This document shows positions 4,344 to 59,213 of a stretch of DNA of 64,000 bases, one piece after another. The translations under genes were made by a program, and so were the position numbers. Every line of letters starts with the position of its first letter. Positions within the stretch are counted from its first letter, which is position 1. Below the pieces are notes generated by a model, which was not told the origin of the DNA, did no database searches, and saw nothing but the letters and a program-made list of their open reading frames with translations. The DNA is from an uncultured Acidimicrobiia bacterium (lineage in GTDB: Bacteria; Actinomycetota; Acidimicrobiia; Spongiisociales; JAENVV01): positions 118,261 to 182,260 of the forward strand of contig CAWIFX010000043.1 in the NCBI GenBank assembly GCA_963835515.1, in the 5' to 3' direction.

Positions 4344-6011
4344 ATGAAATCAGGCCCTATCGTGGCAATCCCGTTCGCCCTTCTGTCCCTGTTGGGCGCC
4401 TGCACTTCCGGCAGCAGTTCTGCCTCGTCGACCGTTCAGGAGACGCCATCGTCGAGTACGTCGGTTGCTTCCGCCACCACCACCACTACCGCAGATCTCA
4501 CGAACAACCCAACTGTGCCACAGACCGACAGCAATGGTGCCTTCGTCGGCACGCTGCTCGACGGGACTGAATACACGGTCTTCATTGAACCGAAGCGCCC
4601 GAACGAGGCCATCGGGGGAGTGACCGCCGTGATCGCCGCAGAGCTCGGTGACGTGTCGGCGTTTCTTGAGGTGTCGGTTGAGCCGGAGGCGGTCGAAGAC
4701 TCATCATGGGAGGGCGACACCTATCTTCTGCCGGTCGGCGATTGGACGGTGCGAATCTCGGGCGTGGCACCTGACGAACGAGAGCTACGCCAGGCAGTTG
4801 AATCGATTGACGGGCAAGAGTCGGCGGGTCTGCCGGTCTTGAAGCTAAAACCGCCACTGCGGTGGGCGTCCGACATTGAGACCGAAACAGTAATGCAGGT
4901 TCAGTACTCGACGTTCTCGGTCCGCCGGGGCTGCCAAACCCTGGCAGCCACCTGCAGCGTCGGGCACGCAGTCCAACTTGCCAACGTCGAGGCTTCCGAC
5001 GATGACTTCTTGTTCCTCGAGTCTGGGGCTCCTCGGCCGACTACCGATGCCTGGTTCGTCGACCCGGGGCCGCTCGTCCCACGCGGAGGTCATCAGGTCA
5101 TGTGGACCGGCGAGGAGATGATCGTGTGGGGTGGATCGATCGGAGACACACCGCCGAATTTGGTGGATGGAGCCGCTTTCGATCCAGATACTTCAACCTG
5201 GCGGTCGCTGGCCGCCGCACCGGCCGAAGCCCCTCAGCAAACTGCGGCCGTCTGGGCCGGTGATCGCATGATTGTGGTTAGTGGCGACTCCACCCTCGCC
5301 TACGACGCAGATAGGGACACCTGGGAGACGATCGGCGACGGGATCGACCTCTCGAGTGAGGTTCATATCCGTTGGACCGGTTCGACCGTGGCCGTTTGGA
5401 CGGCGAACGGCATATCGACGTTCACTCCGACGACCGGGCTGTGGACCCAGCTGCCGGATCCAGGGTTCGGTGGGCCGGGCCGTTGGGAAGGTTATCTCCT
5501 CTCAGCAAGTGGCGGTCTCGTCGCCGTCGGTCTGGATGCGCCAGTTTGTTCGGGGCGTCTAGCCGCTAGGTGGAATGGTTTGGAATGGGACCCCGTGCCG
5601 GAGGTCGATCTCACGAACGGTGAGCTGGCGGACTGTGGCTTGGCTAACCAGTCGGGGGTCATCGATGGCCAGCTCATCTTCTGGGAGGATCGTGATCACC
5701 CGACCATGGCGTTCGACTTTCGGACGGATAGGTGGGAGAAGGTCGACACTATCCCGCTGTCAGGTACTGAAGGCGCCTCAGGTGCGATTGAGGTCGGCTC
5801 AGGCATTCTGGTGCCACAGGGGACTCAAGCCGCCTGGCTGCCGAGTGTGGACGCCAGTTGGATCATGCTCGACATGCCAGGACAGGGCTCAGATCTAGAC
5901 ATGATCTGGACTGGCGACCTAGTCGTGATGTGGGGTGCCACATGCTGTTATGGCGCCGGAGACGTTCCCTTCACCATCGACGCCTGGCGCTGGACCATGC
6001 TCGGGCCCTAA
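4344..6011 (+). CDS. Secreted lipoprotein with Kelch/beta-propeller-like W-x-G repeats
   Basis: Signal peptide with lipobox LLGAC|T. Ser/Thr-rich linker. Four or more repeats of the type MxWTGxxMIVWGG / VWAGDRMIVVSG / MIWTGDLVVMWG. The start is taken at the internal Met preceding the signal peptide. Confidence 0.65.
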   Translation: MKSGPIVAIPFALLSLLGACTSGSSSASSTVQETPSSSTSVASATTTTTADLTNNPTVPQTDSNGAFVGTLLDGTEYTVFIEPKRPNEAIGGVTAVIAAELGDVSAFLEVSVEPEAVEDSSWEGDTYLLPVGDWTVRISGVAPDERELRQAVESIDGQESAGLPVLKLKPPLRWASDIETETVMQVQYSTFSVRRGCQTLAATCSVGHAVQLANVEASDDDFLFLESGAPRPTTDAWFVDPGPLVPRGGHQVMWTGEEMIVWGGSIGDTPPNLVDGAAFDPDTSTWRSLAAAPAEAPQQTAAVWAGDRMIVVSGDSTLAYDADRDTWETIGDGIDLSSEVHIRWTGSTVAVWTANGISTFTPTTGLWTQLPDPGFGGPGRWEGYLLSASGGLVAVGLDAPVCSGRLAARWNGLEWDPVPEVDLTNGELADCGLANQSGVIDGQLIFWEDRDHPTMAFDFRTDRWEKVDTIPLSGTEGASGAIEVGSGILVPQGTQAAWLPSVDASWIMLDMPGQGSDLDMIWTGDLVVMWGATCCYGAGDVPFTIDAWRWTMLGP

Positions 6012-6086: not shown

Positions 6087-9000
6087 CTAGCTACACCCGG
6101 TTGTGTCACCACACGTCAGGCAGACGTAGCACGAGCCGTTTCTCACCGTCATGTGGCCGCAATTGGAGCAGACGGGGGCGTCGCCCATGTTCTCCGCCAG
6201 GGCGGCGTCAGCGATGTTGGCCTTGGTCATAGCCGGGGCATGGGCCTCGGCCATTGCTGCGTGGGCAGCGCCTCCACCGTTGCTACCGCTACCCACCGGG
6301 ACTGGCTGGGGAGCAGACATTCCTGCATCCGAGTCGGCGAAAGCGGCAGCTGATTGCACAGCGTCCACATCACGTTCGGCGGCGGCGTCGGTCAGGTCCA
6401 ACTGGACTCCCGCGTCGACAGCCATGCCGGATGGTGGCTCGGGCAGGTCGCCCAATTCACGATCTGGCGGGATCTGAGCCAGGTCGTCACGGTGCAGGTA
6501 CTCGACACCGAGAGCCCGGAACACGTAGTCGACGATCGAGTTCGACATTTTGATGTTCGGATGGCCTTCGACCATGCCCCGAGGCTCAAACGTCTGGAAC
6601 GTGAACGTGTTGACGAACTCCTCGAGTGGCACGCCGTACTGCAAGCCCTTGCTCACCGCAATGGCAAAGCACGACAAGATGCCCTTGAGCGTGGCGCCTT
6701 CCTTCGCAAGATCGATGAAGATCTCACCTAAGGTGCCGTCGTCGTACTCGCCGGTACGCATGAACACCTTGTGGCCACCAATCCGGGCTTCCTGGTTGAA
6801 GCCGGCCCGACGGGACGGCAACAAGAAGCGCGGCGGACGCATCCCGGCGGCGTAAGCAGCCGTTGGCGACATCCCCGCGGGGATCTTGCCCCACGCGATC
6901 TCGGCCTCCTTCTCGATAGCGTCGATGATGTCATCGGAGACGTCATCATCAGCGCCATCATCGGAACTCGACGAGAGCGGTTGTGATGCCTTTGAGCCGT
7001 CCCTGTACAAGGCCATGGCCTTGACCCCCAATTGGTAGGACATCCAATAGGCATCTTCAACCTCTTCGACTGAGATCTCGTTTGGCATGTTGATGGTCTT
7101 GGAGATGGCACCCGAGATGAACGGCTGCGCCGCAGCCATCATCTTGATGTGACCGGTGTGGTGAATGAATCGCTCGCCGTACTTGCCGTTGCGGTTGGCA
7201 CAGTCGAACACGGCCAGGTGCTCGGGGGCCAACCCGGGGGCGCCTTCGATCGTCTGGCGGCCACAAATGTGATCGCCAGCCTCGATGATCTCGGCCCGGG
7301 TGAACCCGAGAGCCTGAAGCATGTCGAAGTCCCATGCCGTGTACTGCTCCTCGGTGAACCCGAGACTGTGCATGGCATCTTCGCCAACCACGAACACGTT
7401 GAAGGCATGCTTCAGTTCGAACACGCCCGGCAGGGCAGATTCGATCCTGGCAATCTCTTCGGTCGTGAAACCCTTGGCAGCCAACGTCTGCTTGTTGATG
7501 GCCGGGGCGTCCTCGAGAGACATGGTGCCGACAACGTGGGTCACGATGCGGGCGATGTCTTCTTCGGAATAACCAAGGTTGCGTAGCGCCGGAGCGATCG
7601 ACTGATTGGCGATCTTGAAGTATCCGCCTCCAGCGAGCTTCTTGAACTTCACGAGTGCGAAATCAGGCTCGACGCCGGTGGTGTCACAGTCCATGAGCAG
7701 ACCGATCGTGCCGGTCGGTGCCAGGACAGTCGCCTGAGCGTTGCGATAGCCGTGCCGTTCGCCACGATCAACCGCCAGGTCCCACGCCGAACGGGCAGCT
7801 TCGAGCATGTCCGACGGTGCCAGTTCAGCATCAATCGGCATGACGTAGTGCGTCACCCCTTCGTAGTCGGTGCGGTTGTAAGCAGCCCGACGGTGGTTGC
7901 GCATAACCCGCAGCATGTTGTCGCGGTTCTCTTCGAACCGAGGGAACGGACCGATCGGCGTTGATGCCACCTCGGCCGATGTCGCATAGGACATACCGGT
8001 CATGATGGCCGTCAATGCGCCGGCGATGGCCCGACCCTTGTCGGAGTCGTAGGGGATGCCCATCCGCATGAGGAGGGAACCGAGGTTGGCGTAGCCAAGA
8101 CCCAGCGTGCGGTAGTCGTACGAACCCTGGGCGATTGAAGCCGACGGGAAGTGTGCCATCGCCACCGAGATCTCCAGGACGACGGTCCAGATGCGGATGG
8201 CGTGACGGTATCCATCGAGGTCGAAGTCGCCCGTGTCCTCGTCGTAGAACTTCACCAGGTTCATCGAGGCCAGGTTGCAGGCCGTGTCGTCGAGGAACAT
8301 GTATTCCGAGCAAGGGTTCGATCCACGGATCTCGCCGCCGGCCGGAGACGTGTGCCACTGGTTGACCGTTGTGTGATATTGCATGCCCGGATCGGCGCAT
8401 GCCCAGGCGGCATCGGCGATCTGGCGCCACAAGTCACGAGCCTTCAGTGTCTTACGAATGCCGCCGGTACGGTTGGTCAGGTTCCAGTCCTCGTCGTTTT
8501 CGACTGCATCGAGGAAGGCCTTGTTTACCCGGACCGAGTTGTTCGAGTTTTGGCCCGAGACGGTGAGGTAGGCCTCGCCGTTGAAGTCGGCAGCGAAGCC
8601 ACCGTGCTGGATGAGCACCCGGGCCTTGTCCTCTTCGATCTTCTTCCAGGCAATGAACTCTTCGATGTCGGGATGATCAACGTCGAGGATGACCATCTTG
8701 GCCGCCCGACGGGTCGTGCCACCGGACTTGATGGCCCCGGCGGCCCGGTCGCCAACCTTGAGGAACGACATGAGTCCCGAGCTCTTGCCGCCACCGGATA
8801 GCGGCTCGCCGCCAGCCCGGATGTTGGAGAAGTTCGAACCGGTACCCGAACCCATTTTGAACAGGCGAGCTTCACGAACCCAGAGGTCCATAATGCCGCC
8901 TTCATTAACAAGGTCATCGTCGACCGCCTGGATGAAGCAGGCATGCGGGGCCGGCCGAGAGTACGAGTCGGGGGAGGGGGTCAGTTCTTTCGTGTCAGGA

Positions 9001-45100: not shown

Positions 45101-46351
45101 TCAGGGCTGAGCATCATTCTTTCGGAGGACCGTAACGATGTCATGGCTCCCGTGCCCCCGTAGGTCGATGCGGGTGGGCTCTGATAGGAGGTAGTCGCTG
45201 TTCAGTTCGGTTGCGGTTTCGATGGATATCCGCACTTCCCCGGCTGCGCCGGTTGACTCGATCCTGCTCGCGACGTTGACGGTGTCCCCCCACAAGTCGT
45301 ACGAGAACTTCCTTTTGCCAATCACACCTGCCACGACCTCGCCCGAATGTATGCCGATGCGGATCGTCCAGGGGAGGTCGTTGACCTGGGCGAATCGGGT
45401 GGTCGCCGCCTGCATCTCAAATGCCAGACCCACGATCACGGCCGCGTGGTCGCTGCGACGCGTGGGGACACCTGCCGCGACCATATAGCCATCTCCGATG
45501 GTCTTGATTTTCTCGACCCCTGCTTGATCGACGAGATCGTCGAACTCGGAGAAGAGTCCGTTGAGCAGATCGACAACCGTGCTGGCATCTGATGCTGCGG
45601 TGAATGCCGTGAAGCCAACGAGGTCGGCGAACAGGACGGTGACGTCTGTGAAACGCTCTGCCACCGCTTCGCCAGAGTTTTTGAGGCGTTCAGCGATCTC
45701 ATCCGGCAAGACGTTGCGCAGGAGTGCATCGGAGCGGTGTTGCTCGGCCTGTAGTGCCGCCTCGGCGAGAAAGACGCTGCGGTACGCCTTGTCAACCAAG
45801 ATCCAGCAGCCGATCGCGAACGCCGCAGCGATTAACAACCACCAGAGCATGTTGTTGACGACTGCTGCGTCAACTCCGGCCGCCTTCATCGCGCCCCAAG
45901 GAATCGATGCGCCGAGGACAACATCGATGACGGCCTGGCGGAGCCGAACCGCCACCACCGGGATCCACACAAACAGTAATAACAACGAGGGGGCGGCGAG
46001 TTCGAAAACTTCCAGGCGATAATAGGTAACCGGCAGTCCGACCGCGATCGAAGCAAATCCCAACACTTCGAGCACTGTGAAGTATTTCACTGCCTTGGTG
46101 TACGTAAGCGCCCAAGCGAGGAGAAAGCCGACGACTATGGCCAGCCTGATTGGCGTTGCCAACGCGGCTTTTTCGGGAGCGACCTGGTAGTCCCAGATGA
46201 TGAAGAGGGGGATGGAAGGTATGGCGATAAGGGCGGCGGCCCGCGCCGTCCGGATGCCGCGTTCCAGGGCACGTTCTTGATAGGCAGCCTCGATTTCACT
46301 GCTGAATGCAAGCGTCGGGAACTTGATCCGACCCTCCAAATTGTGGGTCAT
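45101..46351 (-). CDS. Membrane-anchored class III adenylate/guanylate cyclase
   Basis: Six N-terminal TM helices, then the CHD domain (…VTVLFADLVGFTAF…KTIGDGYMVAAG…IGIHSGEVVAGVIGKRKFSYDLWGDTVNVASR…). Confidence 0.8.
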   Translation of the reverse strand: MTHNLEGRIKFPTLAFSSEIEAAYQERALERGIRTARAAALIAIPSIPLFIIWDYQVAPEKAALATPIRLAIVVGFLLAWALTYTKAVKYFTVLEVLGFASIAVGLPVTYYRLEVFELAAPSLLLLFVWIPVVAVRLRQAVIDVVLGASIPWGAMKAAGVDAAVVNNMLWWLLIAAAFAIGCWILVDKAYRSVFLAEAALQAEQHRSDALLRNVLPDEIAERLKNSGEAVAERFTDVTVLFADLVGFTAFTAASDASTVVDLLNGLFSEFDDLVDQAGVEKIKTIGDGYMVAAGVPTRRSDHAAVIVGLAFEMQAATTRFAQVNDLPWTIRIGIHSGEVVAGVIGKRKFSYDLWGDTVNVASRIESTGAAGEVRISIETATELNSDYLLSEPTRIDLRGHGSHDIVTVLRKNDAQP

Positions 46352-53870: not shown

Positions 53871-54771
53871 ACGAATTCGACAATCCCCACTTTGCTTTGC
53901 CGCCCGTGGCTGCCGGCCTCGGGCCGTTTCCTCATGGAGCCTATCTCGACACGCTTTGGAAGCACACCGCGACCGAACAGGACGAACTGTGGATCGTTGG
54001 CGACGACCGGGGCGTAGTTCCCTTCATGGTTCATGGACAGGTGATCCGGTTTATCGGCGACGCAGATCTTGTGGACTATCGAAGTCCCCTCGGGGAAGGA
54101 ACTGCCGATCTCATTACGAGCGCGGTGTCTGGCTGTCCATCAGGAATGCGCATCGTGGCCGATTCGCTCCCACGAGCCGCAGCTGACGTCGTAGCCAAGG
54201 GTCTTGAGTCGGCCGGTTTACGCATGTCGGTTGGTGACCACACCGTGGCCGCCGTTCTGCAACTCCCGAACGACTTTGAAGAGTACCTTTCGGCGATCGG
54301 CAAGAAGGAACGGCACGAAACCAGACGGAAGCGTCGACGCTACGAGGCGGCTCTCGGCGAGGTTCGGTTTGTTCATGCGCCCACCGATGGACACCTCTTC
54401 GATCAATTCGTGGCCCTGCACCGGTTGTCGCCCGGAGACAAAGGTTCCTTTATGTCGGACGATATGGAGTCCTACTTCCGGGCGCTGTTGTCGCTTGACG
54501 GATGGGGCATCGACGCTTTGGTCGATGAAGACAACCGAATGGTTGCCGGGGGATTCGCGTTCCAGAATGATAGAGGCTATTTCCTGTACAACAGCGCCTA
54601 CGACCCTGTGCACTCGGAGGTATCGCCCGGCGTAGTGTTGATCGCGGGCCTCATCGAACTCGCGATAGAGAGGGGGCGCGTGTCTTCGACTTCCTCAAGG
54701 GCGATGAGAGCTACAAGTTCCGTTTGGGGGCCGAGCCCCGCCAGCTCTACGTCGTGACGGCCAAGACATGA
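53867..54771 (+). CDS. GNAT acetyltransferase (FemAB/CelD-like, Acetyltransf_6 type), frameshifted at a G5 homopolymer (~54671-54675)
   Basis: In-frame up to …LIELAIERG. The +1 frame then gives the expected C-terminus …GARVFDFLKGDESYKFRLGAEPRQLYVVTAKT*, ending at 54771. Confidence 0.55.
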
Positions 54772-55988
54772 TCAAGCAACTCGCCTATTTGAGCCTGCAT
54801 ACCTCCCCACTCATTCAGCCTGGTGGCGGCGATGCCGGCGGCATGAACGTTTACATCGACGAGTTGGCGCGGACGATGGCTGATCGGGGGATCAACGTCG
54901 ACGTCTTCACTCGCAAGACCCAACCCGACCAACCTCAAGTCGTCATCGTCAACGAGCACTACCGCGTCATTCACATCACGGCAGGACCGGTATACGACCT
55001 ACCGATCGCTCAGCTGACCGAGCATGTTTTCGACTTCGCGGAGTCGGTCTGCGAGTGGGCGCAATCGACTGATACCCGGTACGACATCGTTCACTCGCAC
55101 TACTGGCTGTCCGGCTGGGCAGGGCTGATGGTCAAACGGATCCTCGGGATTCCACTGGCGAACTCGTTCCACACGCTTGCCCGAGTCAAGGACGCCACCC
55201 GTCGCCCGGATGAGCCGCCGAGCGCGCTGGTGCGGATTGCCGCCGAACACGACGTCATCGCTGGTTCCGATTGTGTCATCTCATCTACCCAGGCTGAATA
55301 CGACGATCTGTTGTTGCACTACGGCGCCGACCCGACTCGTTTGTGTACCTCGCCGCCCGGAGTTGATCACGACCTGTTTCGGCCGGCCGATCAGCTAGCC
55401 GCCCGGCAGGCTCTGGGAATCGCTCCCGGGATCCCGCTTCTCTTATTTGTGGGCCGCATTCAGGCGTTGAAAGGTGTAGACGTCGCCCTCGACGCCTTTG
55501 AGAAGGTGCAGGCCGGCCTTCCGGAGGCCCAGATGCTCATTGTGGGCGGGCCGAGCGGGCCCGGCGGGACTGATGAGGTCGCCGCGCTCCGCATGAGTGT
55601 CGAAGCACGCGGATTGTCCGATGCCGTCCGGTTCTATGACCCGGTACCTCACGGCGAGCTGGCAGTTTTCTATCAGGCGGCCGATGTTTTAGTCGTCCCA
55701 TCACGTTCCGAGTCGTTTGGTTTGGTCGCAGCCGAAGCCCAGGCCTGCGGCACCCCGGTGGTTGCCGCACGGGTGGGCGGACTCCAGTACGTAATCTCGC
55801 ACCGGCAGTCCGGCCTTCTGATTGACGGTTGGGAGTCAGCTGATTACGCCGACGCACTGACCCGTATTCTGGGCGACGCGGCATACCGGAACCGTCTGTC
55901 GCGCGGTGCGATCACCTTCTCCGAGCAGTTCTCTTGGGCGACGACTGCCAATCGGCTCCTTGAGTTGTATGCCGGCATCACAGGCTGA
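54768..55988 (+). CDS. mshA: D-inositol-3-phosphate glycosyltransferase (mycothiol biosynthesis, GT4)
   Basis: MshA-specific N-terminus SLHTSPLIQPGGGDAGGMNVYI and a GT4 C-terminal E-x7-E region (…VVPSRSESFGLVAAEAQACGTPVVAARVGGL…). Confidence 0.8.
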   Translation: MIKQLAYLSLHTSPLIQPGGGDAGGMNVYIDELARTMADRGINVDVFTRKTQPDQPQVVIVNEHYRVIHITAGPVYDLPIAQLTEHVFDFAESVCEWAQSTDTRYDIVHSHYWLSGWAGLMVKRILGIPLANSFHTLARVKDATRRPDEPPSALVRIAAEHDVIAGSDCVISSTQAEYDDLLLHYGADPTRLCTSPPGVDHDLFRPADQLAARQALGIAPGIPLLLFVGRIQALKGVDVALDAFEKVQAGLPEAQMLIVGGPSGPGGTDEVAALRMSVEARGLSDAVRFYDPVPHGELAVFYQAADVLVVPSRSESFGLVAAEAQACGTPVVAARVGGLQYVISHRQSGLLIDGWESADYADALTRILGDAAYRNRLSRGAITFSEQFSWATTANRLLELYAGITG

Positions 55989-56415
55989 CACGGCCCATCT
56001 CCTCGAAGAGGTAGTCGCGGGTTGGGTGGCAGACCCGGAAAACGACGTGGTGTATTCCGAGCACGTCGACGGGTACCTGGTGATTCGTCTGCGGCAGGTA
56101 GTGCGTGACTTCACGTCGGTCTGGTTCCTCGTGGGGGACCGGTCGGTCGACGTTGAGGCCTATGTGCTTCCCGCCCCTGACCAAGAAGACTCTCCGGCAT
56201 TCCGACAGTGCCTGGTGCGGAACCAGCGAGCCTGGCGGGTTCACTTCATGGTCGGAAAAGATGGTGGTCTCGTCCTGCACGGTCGGCTCGCCAATGGCAG
56301 TGTCACCAGCGCCGAATTGAGCTATCTCCTGGCTGAGATTTATGAGACTGTCGAAGTGAGTTTTAGGGCGCTGATACGGGCCGGATGGACTGATCAACCT
56401 GGTCGCGAAAAATAG
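55969..56415 (+). CDS. YbjN-domain protein
   Basis: ~150 aa. mshA followed by a YbjN-like gene is the conserved arrangement in mycothiol producers. Start uncertain. Confidence 0.5.
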   Translation: MPASQADTAHLLEEVVAGWVADPENDVVYSEHVDGYLVIRLRQVVRDFTSVWFLVGDRSVDVEAYVLPAPDQEDSPAFRQCLVRNQRAWRVHFMVGKDGGLVLHGRLANGSVTSAELSYLLAEIYETVEVSFRALIRAGWTDQPGREK

Positions 56416-56734
56416 GTTTGAGAAACTTCTGCACACAGGTTGTGCACAAGACCCTGTGGAAACCTGTGGATACTGTGGATTATTCACTTCTTTCCATCAT
56501 TTTGTGCATAAATTGACCAGCAAAATCACGGTTATAAGTGGTTTAGGGTTTTTAGTATTGTCTAACAGACTGGTTGACGCATAGAAATATGTTTCGTAGA
56601 TTCGTCATAAGCAAGGCCCAAGGTGCTGCGACAATTCATCAACCGTTCGGGGAAGTGCGGGAGAAGTTTGTCGGGGTTCCTTGGGCTTTTGCGCGTCGGT
56701 GATGTCCTCGGCTGGACCCGGGTTCAGGGTCGGT
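56416..56734. other. Low-GC (~40-45%) 320-bp island between convergent genes with DnaA-box-like repeats and a sigma-70-like promoter
   Basis: TTGTGCACA, three tandem CTGTGGA(A/T)(A/T)(C/A) units spaced 10 nt apart (reverse complements ≈ TTATCCACA), and TTTTGTGCATAAA. TTGACG-17-TAGATT at ~56574-56602 on the + strand. Confidence 0.5.
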
Positions 56735-57310
56735 TCAGGGCTCGAGGCCGACCCCCAACGTGGCGGCCACTCCGGCGTCGATCATGAGATCAAACGAGGC
56801 AGCGGCCGGCACGTACCCGCCCAGCGTCTCCATGAATAGCACGGTCACGTAGATGCGCCCGTTGCTGTCGACTTCCGAAGCGATTCCTACCCGGTCATAG
56901 TCGCCCATGATGTTGGCCCGATGGGTCGGCGAGGCCATGAAAGCCTTGTGGAGCTTTTCGATGTTTGGCCCGTAGCCGACGTTTTCGCCGATCGTCTGCC
57001 AGCCAGTCGTGAACTTTGTCAGGTCCGACGAGTGATAGATATCTCCACGGGCCAGCATTTCGGACGTGTGGATTGCTGCGTCGTCGACGAGGTCGTCGTA
57101 GGGGACCAGTTCGTTGAGACCCGCCGCGACACGCTCTGCGTTGAGCAGGGCCACGAACTCAAGATCCATGGACGGGTTCGCCGAGGACTGTGCCGCCATC
57201 GCCGGGGTGAAGGGAGCGATGGTATTGGCGCCCGATGGTGCCGCCGCAACCGAAGAGACGATGCTGCCCGCGATCGCAACCGTGAGGGCAAAGATGAAGG
57301 CCAGGCGCAT
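56735..57310 (-). CDS. Secreted CAP/SCP/PR-1 (YkwD-like) domain protein
   Basis: Signal peptide. CAP motifs …LNAERVAAGLNELV… and HRANIMGDYDRVGI. Confidence 0.75.
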   Translation of the reverse strand: MRLAFIFALTVAIAGSIVSSVAAAPSGANTIAPFTPAMAAQSSANPSMDLEFVALLNAERVAAGLNELVPYDDLVDDAAIHTSEMLARGDIYHSSDLTKFTTGWQTIGENVGYGPNIEKLHKAFMASPTHRANIMGDYDRVGIASEVDSNGRIYVTVLFMETLGGYVPAAASFDLMIDAGVAATLGVGLEP

Positions 57311-57368: not shown

Positions 57369-58253
57369 TTACAGCGCCAACCCGAACATCAGTTCACGCA
57401 GGTTGACCGGTTTGGTCTCGAAGGAGTTGAGGTCGACTCGCATGGAGCCGAGTCGCAAACCTTGCATGCCTTCGCCGTGGTTCGTCAAAACCCTCAGCAC
57501 CCCGTCGGTGTAGTCCAGTACGCCGAGACCCAGACAGGCGCCCACCCCGTCCTGGACCCCCACGACCATGCCTGCCAGGCGGTCCAGGTCAAGCCCGGTG
57601 GGAAGGGTCGGCGCAAAAACGGTCGGCCTGATTCTCCAGGCCTCCAGCGGATCGGCCAACGCTTGTTTCAGCTGGCGCACCCGGCCCTCCGAGCGGACAT
57701 CGGGTGATAGGGGAATCAGCTCGGGATGAACGTCGGCTGTTATGACGTCCACCGAAAAGAACCTTTGGAGCATTCCGATGATTGGCTCGAGTTCGGCGCC
57801 GCGTTGCAGGCCAACTACCAGCTCGGGACGGCACGTCTCGACCTTGTGATATTTCAGCGTCTGACCGACCACGCCGGATACCGCGCCAGTCGTATCGATG
57901 AGCACCAGGTCGGCTTCGGCGCGTGCCTGCTCGACAAGCGCGGCTGTAGCTAGAACCATCTGCAGGACCAGGCGTGACGGATTCGTGCTCCCGACGAAGC
58001 GCAACGCATCGGCTTCGGAAATGTTGGTCAGGTCGTCGCTGGTTCTGATCCACTTGAGTCCGACACACCCCGGCGGTCCGACGGTCGATTGGGCGACATC
58101 GGCATCCACCAATGCCGCGGCTTTCCCTTTGGCGATGCTTTGACGGAGAATCTCGCGCGCCAGGGTGGACTTTCCGGTGTCGGGCGCCCCAATAAGCATC
58201 ACGACTCCGCCCTGGTTGGCGATGGTCGCCGCAAGTTGTGTGTGATCGGTCAC
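57369..58253 (-). CDS. Clp1/Grc3-family P-loop polynucleotide-kinase-like protein
   Basis: Walker A VMLIGAPDTGKST, a 'lid' DADVAQSTVGPPG (D-x-D-x-x-Q), and a Walker B-like LVLIDTTG. This is the arrangement of the Clp1_P domain. Confidence 0.5.
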   Translation of the reverse strand: MTDHTQLAATIANQGGVVMLIGAPDTGKSTLAREILRQSIAKGKAAALVDADVAQSTVGPPGCVGLKWIRTSDDLTNISEADALRFVGSTNPSRLVLQMVLATAALVEQARAEADLVLIDTTGAVSGVVGQTLKYHKVETCRPELVVGLQRGAELEPIIGMLQRFFSVDVITADVHPELIPLSPDVRSEGRVRQLKQALADPLEAWRIRPTVFAPTLPTGLDLDRLAGMVVGVQDGVGACLGLGVLDYTDGVLRVLTNHGEGMQGLRLGSMRVDLNSFETKPVNLRELMFGLAL

Positions 58254-58406: not shown

Positions 58407-59213
58407 TCAGATTCTTGAGAACGTAACCGGTCGCTCAAGCCCGACGGATAACTGGTCAGAGGCTCGACCTTGGCGCACGGCCAACGCGACCAGGCCCTGC
58501 GAGTCGATGACGGCCATCAGGTCACCCTCCGCGACGCGACCGAACGTGTCTACGAGTTGCACTTCCTGCTCGTTCACACCGATCTTCACCTTGATGGCGT
58601 CCCCAACGGAGATGCCGATCTCGGCTAGTTCGTCCGGTCCGATGTTGGTCTGGACGTTGCCGAATCGGTCGATCCACCAGGTGTGGCCTGACACGTGGTT
58701 GTCGCCAACTTCGGGGAGAGGCAGGATCATGGGAGTCAGCGACGCCGGGTTGACTTCATCGCCAAGGTCCGCAATGCGCGCTTCGCCGGAAGCAAGCACG
58801 GCGGCCGCCGGTCCAAAACGATCTCGCCCATCGAACGTCGCTCCCGCCGAGGGGATGATGAACTCCGGGTTCGTCAGCGTGTGAGCGATTCGCGCTCCGC
58901 CAACCATGGCGACTGCCGGAGACAGCAAACCGTTGTCCGGACCAACGAAGTAGCCCCAATCCGTTTGTACGGCGATGGGGAGGCGTTCGGTGCCAACCCC
59001 CGGGTCGACGACCGCTAGAGCGACGCCCTCGGGTAGGTACTGGATCGCCCGCATCAAGGACAACGCTCCCGACCGAACCGACCCGGGGTGGATCGAGTGG
59101 TTCACATCGATGACTCGCGTGTCGGGACTCAGTTTGGCAATGACCCCGTGCACGACTCCCACGAACTCGTCGTCGTGGCCGAAATCGGAAAGAAATGACA
59201 CAAAAGAGGGCAT
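58407..59213 (-). CDS. S-adenosyl-L-methionine hydroxide adenosyltransferase (DUF62; fluorinase/chlorinase-fold SAM hydrolase)
   Basis: …FLSDFGHDDEFVGVVHGVI…, …AVVDPGVGT…, …DRFGNVQTN… are conserved DUF62 blocks. Confidence 0.75.
   Translation of the reverse strand: MPSFVSFLSDFGHDDEFVGVVHGVIAKLSPDTRVIDVNHSIHPGSVRSGALSLMRAIQYLPEGVALAVVDPGVGTERLPIAVQTDWGYFVGPDNGLLSPAVAMVGGARIAHTLTNPEFIIPSAGATFDGRDRFGPAAAVLASGEARIADLGDEVNPASLTPMILPLPEVGDNHVSGHTWWIDRFGNVQTNIGPDELAEIGISVGDAIKVKIGVNEQEVQLVDTFGRVAEGDLMAVIDSQGLVALAVRQGRASDQLSVGLERPVTFSRI

Follow-up and report, generated by a model that had tools for sequence, protein, structure and literature searches.

Described Systems Closest to the Locus

In Bacillus subtilis, DnaA-box clusters (DBCs) located outside oriC regulate neighbouring promoters and titrate DnaA, which activates sda and represses ywlC and yydA (PMC3245932). 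The high-affinity DnaA box reads TT(G/C)TCCACA in high-GC actinobacteria and TTATCCACA in most bacteria (PMC4285127). The locus described here belongs to a stretch of 64,000 nucleotides from an uncultured Acidimicrobiia bacterium (assembly GCA_963835515.1, contig CAWIFX010000043.1, positions 118,261 to 182,260; the whole stretch is called the window below). The gene order in this part of the window is mshA (54768-55988, + strand), a YbjN-family gene (~55969-56415, + strand), a gap of 319 nt and a CAP-domain gene (56735-57310, - strand). The gap contains an array of DnaA-box-like 9-mers, a promoter-like element and a segment predicted to encode a structured small RNA. On balance, we lean towards the view that these parts form a new small-RNA gene with a promoter under DnaA control in Acidimicrobiia, both the binding of DnaA and the expression of the RNA being predictions from sequence comparison.

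Like the B. subtilis DBCs at yqeG-sda, ywlC-ywlB and yydA-yycS, the array is an intergenic cluster of near-consensus boxes, placed off-origin and 5' of a promoter (PMC3245932). Unlike in these clusters, the putative controlled gene is a small non-coding RNA and not a protein gene, and the array lies 100-135 bp from the -35 element, across a spacer that varies by helical turns. The positions of the Bacillus DBCs differ between species (PMC3245932), whereas the present cluster, for which DnaA binding is putative, is fixed in place class-wide. From clusters of this kind DnaA is known to regulate protein genes, and the clusters are known to buffer initiation. Full-text searches of the open-access literature, Actinobacteria included, did not find a small RNA as the output of a DnaA-box cluster. 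The coupling of such a cluster to a small-RNA promoter is thus unreported, and it is a variant of the known DnaA-box clusters.

Other non-coding chromosomal clusters of DnaA boxes in defined orientations are datA, DARS1 and DARS2 of Escherichia coli; datA inactivates DnaA, and the DARS sites reactivate it. The DARS core carries opposed (head-to-head) DnaA boxes, and the opposed boxes a and b of the present array resemble it. Unlike datA and DARS, the array has no recognisable IHF or Fis sites, and its coupling to a promoter and an RNA gene is without counterpart there. With bacterial oriC it shares tightly packed DnaA boxes in both orientations, here beside AT-rich DNA. Unlike oriC, which in Actinobacteria is usually linked to dnaA/dnaN, the site lacks a skew switch and a conserved unwinding element, it has neither dnaA nor dnaN in its vicinity, and the flanking genes converge on it.

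Among the described RNAs, the stand-alone actinobacterial 6C RNA (Rfam RF01066) is similar in being a short GC-rich hairpin with its own promoter, widely conserved in a high-GC lineage and with an invariant loop as the likely functional site. The two differ in that there is no covariance-model similarity on either strand and the present RNA forms a single long rod, not two hairpins. The loops of 6C RNA are C-rich, whereas the loop of the present RNA is G-rich (GGGGAAG). The 4.5S/signal recognition particle (SRP) RNA and 6S RNA, rod-shaped RNAs that function as partners of proteins, are also comparable, with a long end-closing helix, an irregular rod with a conserved internal motif and apical region, a strong housekeeping-type promoter and one copy per locus. 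The Rfam SRP and 6S models do not match, however; the present RNA is too short for 6S, and the motifs of SRP domain IV (a GGAA tetraloop closed by C-G and an AGCA loop) are absent by inspection.

A Predicted Structured Small RNA with Its Own Promoter

The comparison set comprised ~190 related loci from Acidimicrobiia metagenome-assembled genomes (MAGs) and metagenomes, which are cited by L numbers. A scan with the MshA protein, with one genome per species, gave 79 loci, nearly all in Acidimicrobiia MAGs, with MshA identities from 97% to ~45%. A metagenome scan seeded with the RNA pattern alone matched at least 120 stretches, and the matches listed include at least ~110 true RNA homologues. When the gap was used as a blastn query, two blocks corresponding to window positions 56403-56480 and 56593-56696 were recovered in dozens of loci, with a near-constant spacing of ~205 nt between the blocks. 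In these dozens of loci sharing both blocks, MshA is only 55-64% identical; the two blocks are notable because intergenic DNA should be unalignable at such distances. In the multiple alignment, a left block (the motif CGCGAAAA and the box array) is followed by an unconserved spacer and then by the promoter and a GC-rich block with complementary ends. As read from these alignments, the gap is a compact three-part module on the + strand, more than terminator space; the putative promoter, the structured RNA, the DnaA-box-like array and their physical coupling are all shown by comparison. The observation in the initial annotation of this DNA, which was made from the window sequence, was confirmed overall and its interpretation in part: the small RNA and a plausible DnaA-related site were retained, and the origin and the small open reading frame (ORF) were not.

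The features of the right part of the gap are as follows.

56574-56579 and 56597-56602, + strand: sigma-70/SigA-type promoter found by promoter scan, with the -35 element TTGACG (56574-56579), a 17-nt spacer and the -10 element TAGATT (56597-56602)
~56609-56695, + strand: structured small RNA of ~85 nt, based on covariance model, covariation and fold, with predicted ends
56611-56623 with ~56680-56692: RNA helix P1
from 56629-56634: RNA helix P2
56643-56646 with 56657-56660: RNA helix P3
56649-56660, + strand: invariant core GGGGAAGUGCGG, comprising most of the 10-nt apical loop UCGGGGAAGU and the 3' arm of P3

The RNA is predicted to fold into a rod-like hairpin, the 5' and 3' ends of which are paired in P1 (13 bp). 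Above P1 there follow a conserved U.U/G.U internal motif, the variable helix P2, the short helix P3 (CCGU/GCGG) and the invariant G-rich loop of 10 nt. The core GGGGAAGUGCGG is identical in all 70 sequences of alignment A1 and served as the search seed for recovering further homologues. The core GGGGAAGTGCGG was found on the mshA strand in 70 of 80 sequences; those without it were truncated contigs, outgroups, L028 and L057, and the RNA of L028 was later found by the covariance model.

RNAalifold, applied to 70 sequences, returned the rod of P1, P2 and P3 with the 10-nt loop, supported by compensatory changes: alignment pair 27-100 is GC in 38 sequences and AU in 32, and pair 22-105 occurs as four types (CG, AU, GU and GC). 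The covariance model R1, built from the 70-sequence alignment, detects exactly one sense copy per locus with 46-95 bits (91.2 bits for the RNA in the window), in comparison to 13-33 bits on the antisense strand. In the model-based alignment A3, 90.8% of cells form standard pairs, versus 36-49% when the partners are slid by 1-3 columns; double-change cells number 200 versus 21-95, and the covariation score is 0.339 versus at most 0.13. An independent set (A4) of 100 metagenome sequences from among the matches listed has 92.7% of cells paired, and P2, which was left unconstrained by the search pattern, covaries at all four of its pairs in this set. Taken together, A3 and A4 show 91-93% paired cells versus 34-49% in the slid controls, with 200-264 double-change cells. 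The sense strand of the window itself folds into the same structure with a minimum free energy of -44.1 kcal/mol (z -4.7); the antisense strand gives -30.1 kcal/mol. Many of the G.U pairs (e.g., in P3 and at columns 30-92) would be C.A mismatches on the opposite strand, and this asymmetry fixes the RNA strand as sense (+).

The promoter is conserved together with the RNA. The arrangement TTGA(C/A)N-17-TAnnnT is present upstream of the RNA in 68 of 69 genome loci and also in the metagenome loci of group A (defined below). In the genome loci, the -10 element ends 12-16 nt before the CCC of P1, and the spacer of the promoter is constant at 17 nt. Given this distance, the first transcribed nucleotide should be located only a few positions from the closing helix; for the window this means ~56609, about 7 nt after the -10 element. 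The TTGACG-17-TAGATT element pointed out in the initial annotation was found again by the scan and corresponds to this putative RNA promoter.

The GC-rich right third of the gap, with its strong covariation, bears out the earlier suggestion of an unannotated small RNA. The Rfam scan proposed with it matched no known family: with Rfam 15 at the gathering threshold there were no matches in the whole window or in nine further loci, and a scan of the gap at E values up to 10 gave only sub-threshold matches to unrelated families, the best at ~16 bits. No tRNA or tmRNA was found by ARAGORN, and full-text literature searches found neither the core sequence nor such an RNA. The RNA family is new, being missing from Rfam and, according to the full-text searches, from the literature. 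As judged from conservation and covariation, the gap very probably holds a so far undescribed, strongly conserved structured small RNA gene with its own promoter.

Some further observations concern the sequence of the RNA and its 3' side. A 13-nt same-sense copy of the core, CGGGGAAGTGCGG, is located at 45230-45242 (- strand) within an adenylate cyclase gene (45101-46351), where it encodes G-E-V-R in the conserved cyclase motif ESTGAAGEVRIS; at this place the RNA model gives no match. As a target of the RNA this 13-mer was rejected: it has the same sense as the loop and is part of a coding motif, and it was judged a chance occurrence (0.004-0.008 expected per 64 kb). Tandem repeats directly 3' of the RNA were seen in several loci, with CAGCTAT repeated ~10 times in L050 (~6560-6640) and in L032 (~4420-4470), and with GTACTCA or GGTACTT repeats in L007 (~6950-7000) and L018 (~6600-6640).

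The DnaA-Box-Like Array and Its Distance to the Promoter

The left block and the spacer contain the following features.

56404-56411, + strand: CGCGAAAA motif, left edge of the conserved block, here overlapping the last YbjN codons
56427-56435, + strand: box a, forward DnaA-box-like sequence, TTCTGCACA in the window, weak with two mismatches
56440-56449, both strands: box b, perfect 10-nt palindrome TTGTGCACAA (also TTGTGCACA(A)), matching 8 of 9 positions of the DnaA box on either strand
56455-56463, - strand: box c, GTTTCCACA, at a conserved position with an offset of -18 from box e
56465-56473, - strand: box d, GTATCCACA, a perfect TTATCCACA in L014-L016, L019 and L034
56474-56482, - strand: box e, TAATCCACA, nearest to the promoter and starting 100 nt 5' of the -35 element
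56483-56573: spacer, unconserved in sequence, AT-rich in the window, of quantised length
56503-56511, - strand: extra box TTATGCACA in the spacer, one of two exact TTWTNCACA matches in the window

One forward box (a) is thus opposed to four reverse boxes (b-e), packed at 9-14 bp, and c, d and e are three head-to-tail TGTGGAnnn boxes. The consensus anchored on the palindrome (90 unique sequences) reads cgcgAAAA ... aaaacTtgtc.aca ... TTGTGCACAA ccc CCTGTGGAt..c TGTGGAtat gtgGa.aa.c. Box b is identical in 90 unique main-clade sequences; L061-L068, among others, have TGTGGACAA in its place, the reverse complement of the perfect box TTGTCCACA. Where box a stands, most loci have TTGTCGACA, and L039, L047 and L072 have a perfect TTGTCCACA. 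Box e is a perfect TTATCCACA in L002, L003, L032 and L050 and a perfect TTGTCCACA in L021, L042, L049 and L056. More generally, the clades keep the motif and vary its arrangement: L061-L068 combine a perfect TTGTCCACA with TTTTCCACA or TTATCCACA, and opposed TTTCCACAG/CTGTGGA pairs occur in L029, L036 and L038. Three CTGTGGA copies, described earlier as 10-nt-phased, are indeed present (at 56454, 56464 and 56473, out of 11 in the 64-kb window), with a spacing of 10 and then 9 nt. The extra box TTATGCACA is lineage-specific, being kept in L001 and L002 only; similarly, the box TTTTGTGCATAAA of the initial annotation is retained in the closest relatives alone.

The 9-mers with at most one mismatch to TT[A/G/T]TCCACA number 16 in the window, and six of them fall within 56440-56511, which makes the site a cluster under a definition of at least three such 9-mers within ~100 bp. 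Two of these six represent the two strands of the palindrome; elsewhere in the window no pair lies less than 150 nt apart. The related loci contain two to six such 9-mers. Across the loci, the density of near-consensus 9-mers is 24.9/kb in the upstream region versus 0.24/kb in the rest of the loci, a 100-fold difference, and perfect copies of TTGTCCACA, TTATCCACA or TTTTCCACA occur ~44 times in ~12 kb of upstream regions. No other DnaA-box cluster was found in ~800 kb of loci or elsewhere in the 64-kb window. The cluster is conserved beyond neutral expectation, and no group A locus with sufficient upstream sequence lacks it. Moreover, the array remains upstream of the RNA, and on the RNA strand, where the unit has been inverted or has moved with respect to mshA (L028, L053, L151, L152 and L183).

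In nearly all Acidimicrobiia loci, also where a YbjN gene is missing, the motif CGCGAAAA precedes box b by 37 nt. It may serve as an A-tract or UP-like element, or a second factor may bind there. A second copy of this motif is located 26-27 nt 5' of the -35 element in ~9 loci (e.g., L018, L022, L026, L027, L037, L040, L045 and L053).

Readings of the array as part of a transcript were rejected. A hairpin at box a, with CGCGAAAA as a U-tract of the - strand, had a mean best stem of 3.98 versus 3.96 with arms swapped between loci (p 0.47), and a promoter-like motif for a - strand transcript from the array was present in only 3 of 70 spacers. Because both of these RNA readings failed their tests, the array should act as DNA and not as RNA. 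Boxes a and b were also tried as the two arms of a hairpin, and here inspection shows that the complementarity is lost, not kept, through substitutions specific to clades (from CC to CG in box a and from GG to GC in box b).

The length of the spacer is distributed in steps. The distances from box e to the -35 element in 105 unique spacers form rungs at 70.8, 79.5, 89.9, 100.9, 110.0 and 122 bp; the rung at 100.9 bp holds 57 cases, including the window at 100. Spacers within 2 bp of a ladder of ~10.3-10.4 bp make up 85%, versus 48% expected, and with a single count per rung the period of 10.3 bp gives R = 0.90 (p ~0.046). A DnaA filament extending over weak boxes in the spacer was rejected, as no periodic box-like signal was found 3' of box e.

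The Same RNA in a Second Lineage

The metagenome matches listed fall cleanly into two groups. The MshA identity to the window is 50-64% in group A and 41-48% in group B, and the GC content is ~0.57-0.73 at the RNA region of group A and 0.70-0.75 for the contigs of group B. The promoters of group A are of the TTGAC type and those of group B of other types. Group A loci possess one to six DnaA-like boxes where the upstream DNA suffices (at least two in all except L091) and have the CLP1_P neighbour described below. Group B loci have an extra 5' hairpin, and the RNA begins ~100 nt after ybjN.

The loop of the extra hairpin in group B contains a conserved CGACGG (e.g., L103:6560-6660, L110:5030-5100 on the - strand, and L124). 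Examples of group B promoters are TTGCnnGCAAnGGAnnnGGCGGGTTAnGGT and CTTGTAGTGC-N-GTGCTACGGT, the latter with an upstream AAAATGTCT. It is possible that these hairpin and promoter elements are lineage-specific control sites in place of the DnaA-box array.

The next gene on the same strand is proC in 31 of the 47 group B loci among the matches listed. It is preceded by a conserved GGTTACCCT/TACCCT -10 element 6-7 nt 5' of the start codon (e.g., L199, L195, L119, L124, L141 and L089), and because its own -10 element is so close to the start codon, proC looks leaderless and independent. A role of the RNA as a proC leader in the second lineage was rejected on account of this element. In L097, a ~63-nt unit (ggacggagcgagcggaggcgagcgacggtggagtcagcgatccgggctctgcccggtcgcgaga) is tandemly duplicated within the ~190 nt between the RNA and proC.

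A MAG contig of 1.69 Mb (L200) shows the gene order rsiG, a helix-turn-helix (HTH) gene, mshA, ybjN, the gap, proC, a phosphatase gene, HTH_17 and SAM_HAT. As far as gene order and box distribution can tell, the RNA and its linkage to mshA-ybjN is old and the box array is an addition of the Acidimicrobiia. The occurrence of the same RNA without boxes in the second lineage provides a natural contrast for what the array adds.

Which Factor Reads the Array?

A DnaA titration or regulatory site was among the candidates raised in the initial annotation, and it is supported at the sequence level by the class-wide occurrence of the array, the 100-fold enrichment and the perfect boxes in distant clades. 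In our judgement, the boxes of the array are probably bound by DnaA; whether they also regulate the RNA promoter is close to an even question, with the odds slightly on the negative side.

Several results weigh against this interpretation. Group B has the RNA and no DnaA-like boxes (among the matches listed), and therefore the RNA itself does not depend on the boxes. Box b, which in the main clade is more strongly conserved than the rest of the array, departs from the DnaA consensus at its centre, and its palindrome could point to a different, dimeric binder. The array is unusually far upstream, at ~-130 to -205 from the predicted start. When the phasing was measured from box b, in genome loci only and with the spacers collapsed to length classes, p was 0.66; the phasing is suggestive, becoming borderline once relatedness is allowed for. 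As for the RNA, the transcript, its ends and its strand are predicted from promoter conservation, G.U asymmetry and covariation. The promoter/terminator scan of the gap found no intrinsic-terminator-like site, and a U-run (UUUU) follows P1 in the window and close relatives only. Also, the search for complementarity to the invariant loop did not find a target or partner of the RNA within the 64-kb window, where no complementary site is longer than 9 nt.

The best surviving alternative, which we consider unlikely albeit a serious contender, keeps the RNA gene as real and takes the upstream repeats for operators of another protein, for example a response regulator or a dimeric factor, their likeness to DnaA boxes being coincidental. 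Direct repeats of ~10 bp are typical of OmpR-type regulators. The symmetry typical of dimeric regulators is present in TTGTGCACAA, an invariant perfect palindrome in the main clade, and in box a, which is often the palindrome TTGTCGACAA; furthermore, the array is 5' of the promoter and in register with it, as would be the site of a transcription factor. Against such an operator stands the match to the whole 9-mer, including its TT/AA end, with the ~44 perfect boxes mentioned above, and distant clades swap the palindrome for non-palindromic perfect DnaA boxes. The half-sites of the 10-bp palindrome follow each other without spacing, which would suit a monomeric reader of 9 bp over a helix-turn-helix dimer.

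Alternatively, the array could mainly be a DnaA-handling site, titrating the protein like datA and the B. subtilis DBCs or exchanging its nucleotide like DARS; it would then act on the initiation of replication, with the RNA promoter nearby by accident or as a secondary matter. Five to six boxes of high similarity outside oriC, conserved class-wide, would fit this function, and the head-to-head pair (a forward, b reverse) beside head-to-tail boxes recalls the DARS core. The B. subtilis DBCs combine both functions, titrating DnaA and regulating their neighbours (PMC3245932). On the other hand, the array always accompanies the RNA promoter, inverted units included, and its distance to the -35 element is quantised, which a pure titration site would not need. 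We regard this as the less probable of the two alternatives; it is compatible with DnaA control of the RNA promoter and does not exclude it.

It is very improbable that the RNA is a cis element, either a riboswitch-like leader of the downstream gene or a bidirectional terminator between convergent genes. Such a role might be read from the same-strand proC of the second lineage and in the position of the window hairpin, which is 40 nt from the CAP stop codon and the complement of which also folds (-30.1 kcal/mol). In Acidimicrobiia, however, the gene 3' of the RNA changes between loci: 24 have a CAP gene (-), 13 have a VOC-like gene, which may face either way, 7 have a CLP1_P-type NTPase gene (-), and the rest have still other genes. 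This gene is on the opposite strand in 38 of 64 loci and belongs to several families. A constant position in the 5' untranslated region of one gene family on the same strand, as expected of a riboswitch or leader, is accordingly not found in this class, and because the downstream genes vary in family and orientation, the RNA is taken to be free-standing. The proC gene has its own TACCCT -10 element, and a terminator would keep neither an invariant 12-nt loop core nor a dedicated promoter.

A replication origin, the remnant of one or an element of the terminus type has a negligible probability at this site, and the origin-like element of the initial annotation was dropped. The suggestion had come from clustered DnaA boxes beside an AT-rich stretch in the window; this stretch is unconserved (the spacer GC has a median of 0.57), and the genes point towards the site, not away from it. 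The GC-skew and dnaA checks proposed at that time were run on the window and its relatives. In the window, the skew is +0.038 to the left and +0.032 to the right of the site, with a monotonic rise over 64 kb, and almost all 2-kb bins have positive values regardless of gene strand, which places the whole window on one replichore with the + strand leading. Among 53 loci, 42 keep one sign across the site, 6 have an origin-like switch and 5 a terminus-like switch. No DnaA was detected by tblastn, with the E. coli protein as the query, either in the window or in any of 200 loci.

An equally negligible chance is left for a small protein of 38-42 residues (MFRRFVISKAQ...) encoded in the right part of the gap, since the ORF noted earlier does exist in the window (56574-56702 from TTG, or from ATG 56589) but its frame is not conserved, 28 of 70 homologous loci having no ORF of at least 30 codons across the core in this frame and the lengths ranging from 0-12 to several hundred codons, while substitutions compensate base pairs, indels of the variable helices are not multiples of three and no Pfam match was found.

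Flanking Genes and Base Composition

The convergent genes at the two sides of the gap were confirmed as a YbjN-family gene (Pfam E 8e-6, + strand, stop codon at 56415) and a CAP-domain gene (Pfam E 4e-9, - strand, stop codon at 56735); an exact-sequence lookup of the CAP-domain protein returned no record. The likely ATG start of the YbjN gene lies inside the end of mshA, with a 20-nt overlap (55969-55988), which suggests translational coupling. The adjacency of mshA and ybjN is kept in both lineages carrying the RNA, and in some Acidimicrobiia clades without a YbjN gene the module directly follows mshA. Further along the window are genes for a bacterial CLP1_P-type P-loop NTPase (57369-58253, - strand; Pfam E 1e-26) and for a SAM hydroxide adenosyltransferase (SAM_HAT; 58407-59213, - strand). 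In Acidimicrobiia, both are conserved neighbours of the RNA locus, and SAM_HAT is found near the RNA in the second lineage too (L200).

The GC content in 200-nt windows drops to 0.395 (56400-56599) and 0.455 (56500-56699), with 0.58-0.64 (~0.61) on both flanks, so the low-GC gap reported earlier is real in this genome, with a GC content of 0.35 in the spacer at 56483-56573. As the headline feature of the locus it did not hold, because AT-richness is not conserved among the relatives: the median spacer GC of 0.57 was obtained over 67 loci, and values below 0.45 were found in 7 only (the close relatives of the window and a few others). By this comparison, the low-GC island is a side effect, specific to this lineage, of a spacer under no constraint. 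A convergent gap that resembles dead AT-rich DNA in one genome is thus a composite regulatory locus.

A Possible Link between DnaA and a Small RNA

In the mechanism that we favour, transcription of the RNA would start at ~56609 from the near-consensus housekeeping promoter, and DnaA would bind the five DnaA-box-like 9-mers ~100-135 bp 5' of the -35 element. The bound protein would act on the RNA promoter from one face of the helix, as may be concluded from the spacer length varying in roughly whole helical turns. RNA synthesis would thereby depend on how much DnaA is present or on its nucleotide state, as with sda, ywlC and yydA in B. subtilis, and some DnaA would inevitably be sequestered by the array as well. 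The paired ends, the U.U/G.U internal motif and the invariant G-rich loop suggest a stable RNA acting through its loop, most likely in trans on a protein or a C/U-rich RNA partner.

A broader and rather speculative model, to which we assign a low probability, is that of a class-wide replication-coupled riboregulator. DnaA occupancy of the phased array would set the RNA level, and the RNA would feed back on the cell cycle, replication or thiol/proline metabolism, the last being suggested by the ancient linkage to mshA-ybjN and proC; or else transcription of the RNA would gate a DARS/datA-like site of DnaA recycling.

The RNA adds a well-supported structured family with at least ~170 examples in two deep actinobacterial lineages, and it is carried by abundant and seldom cultured bacteria from soil, the sea and sponges. 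If its control by DnaA is true, it would be the first DnaA-controlled small RNA conserved at the class level. If the link holds, the level of this RNA would report the replication-initiation potential of the cell, and the locus would give access to the control of replication in Acidimicrobiia, a class that is largely uncultured.

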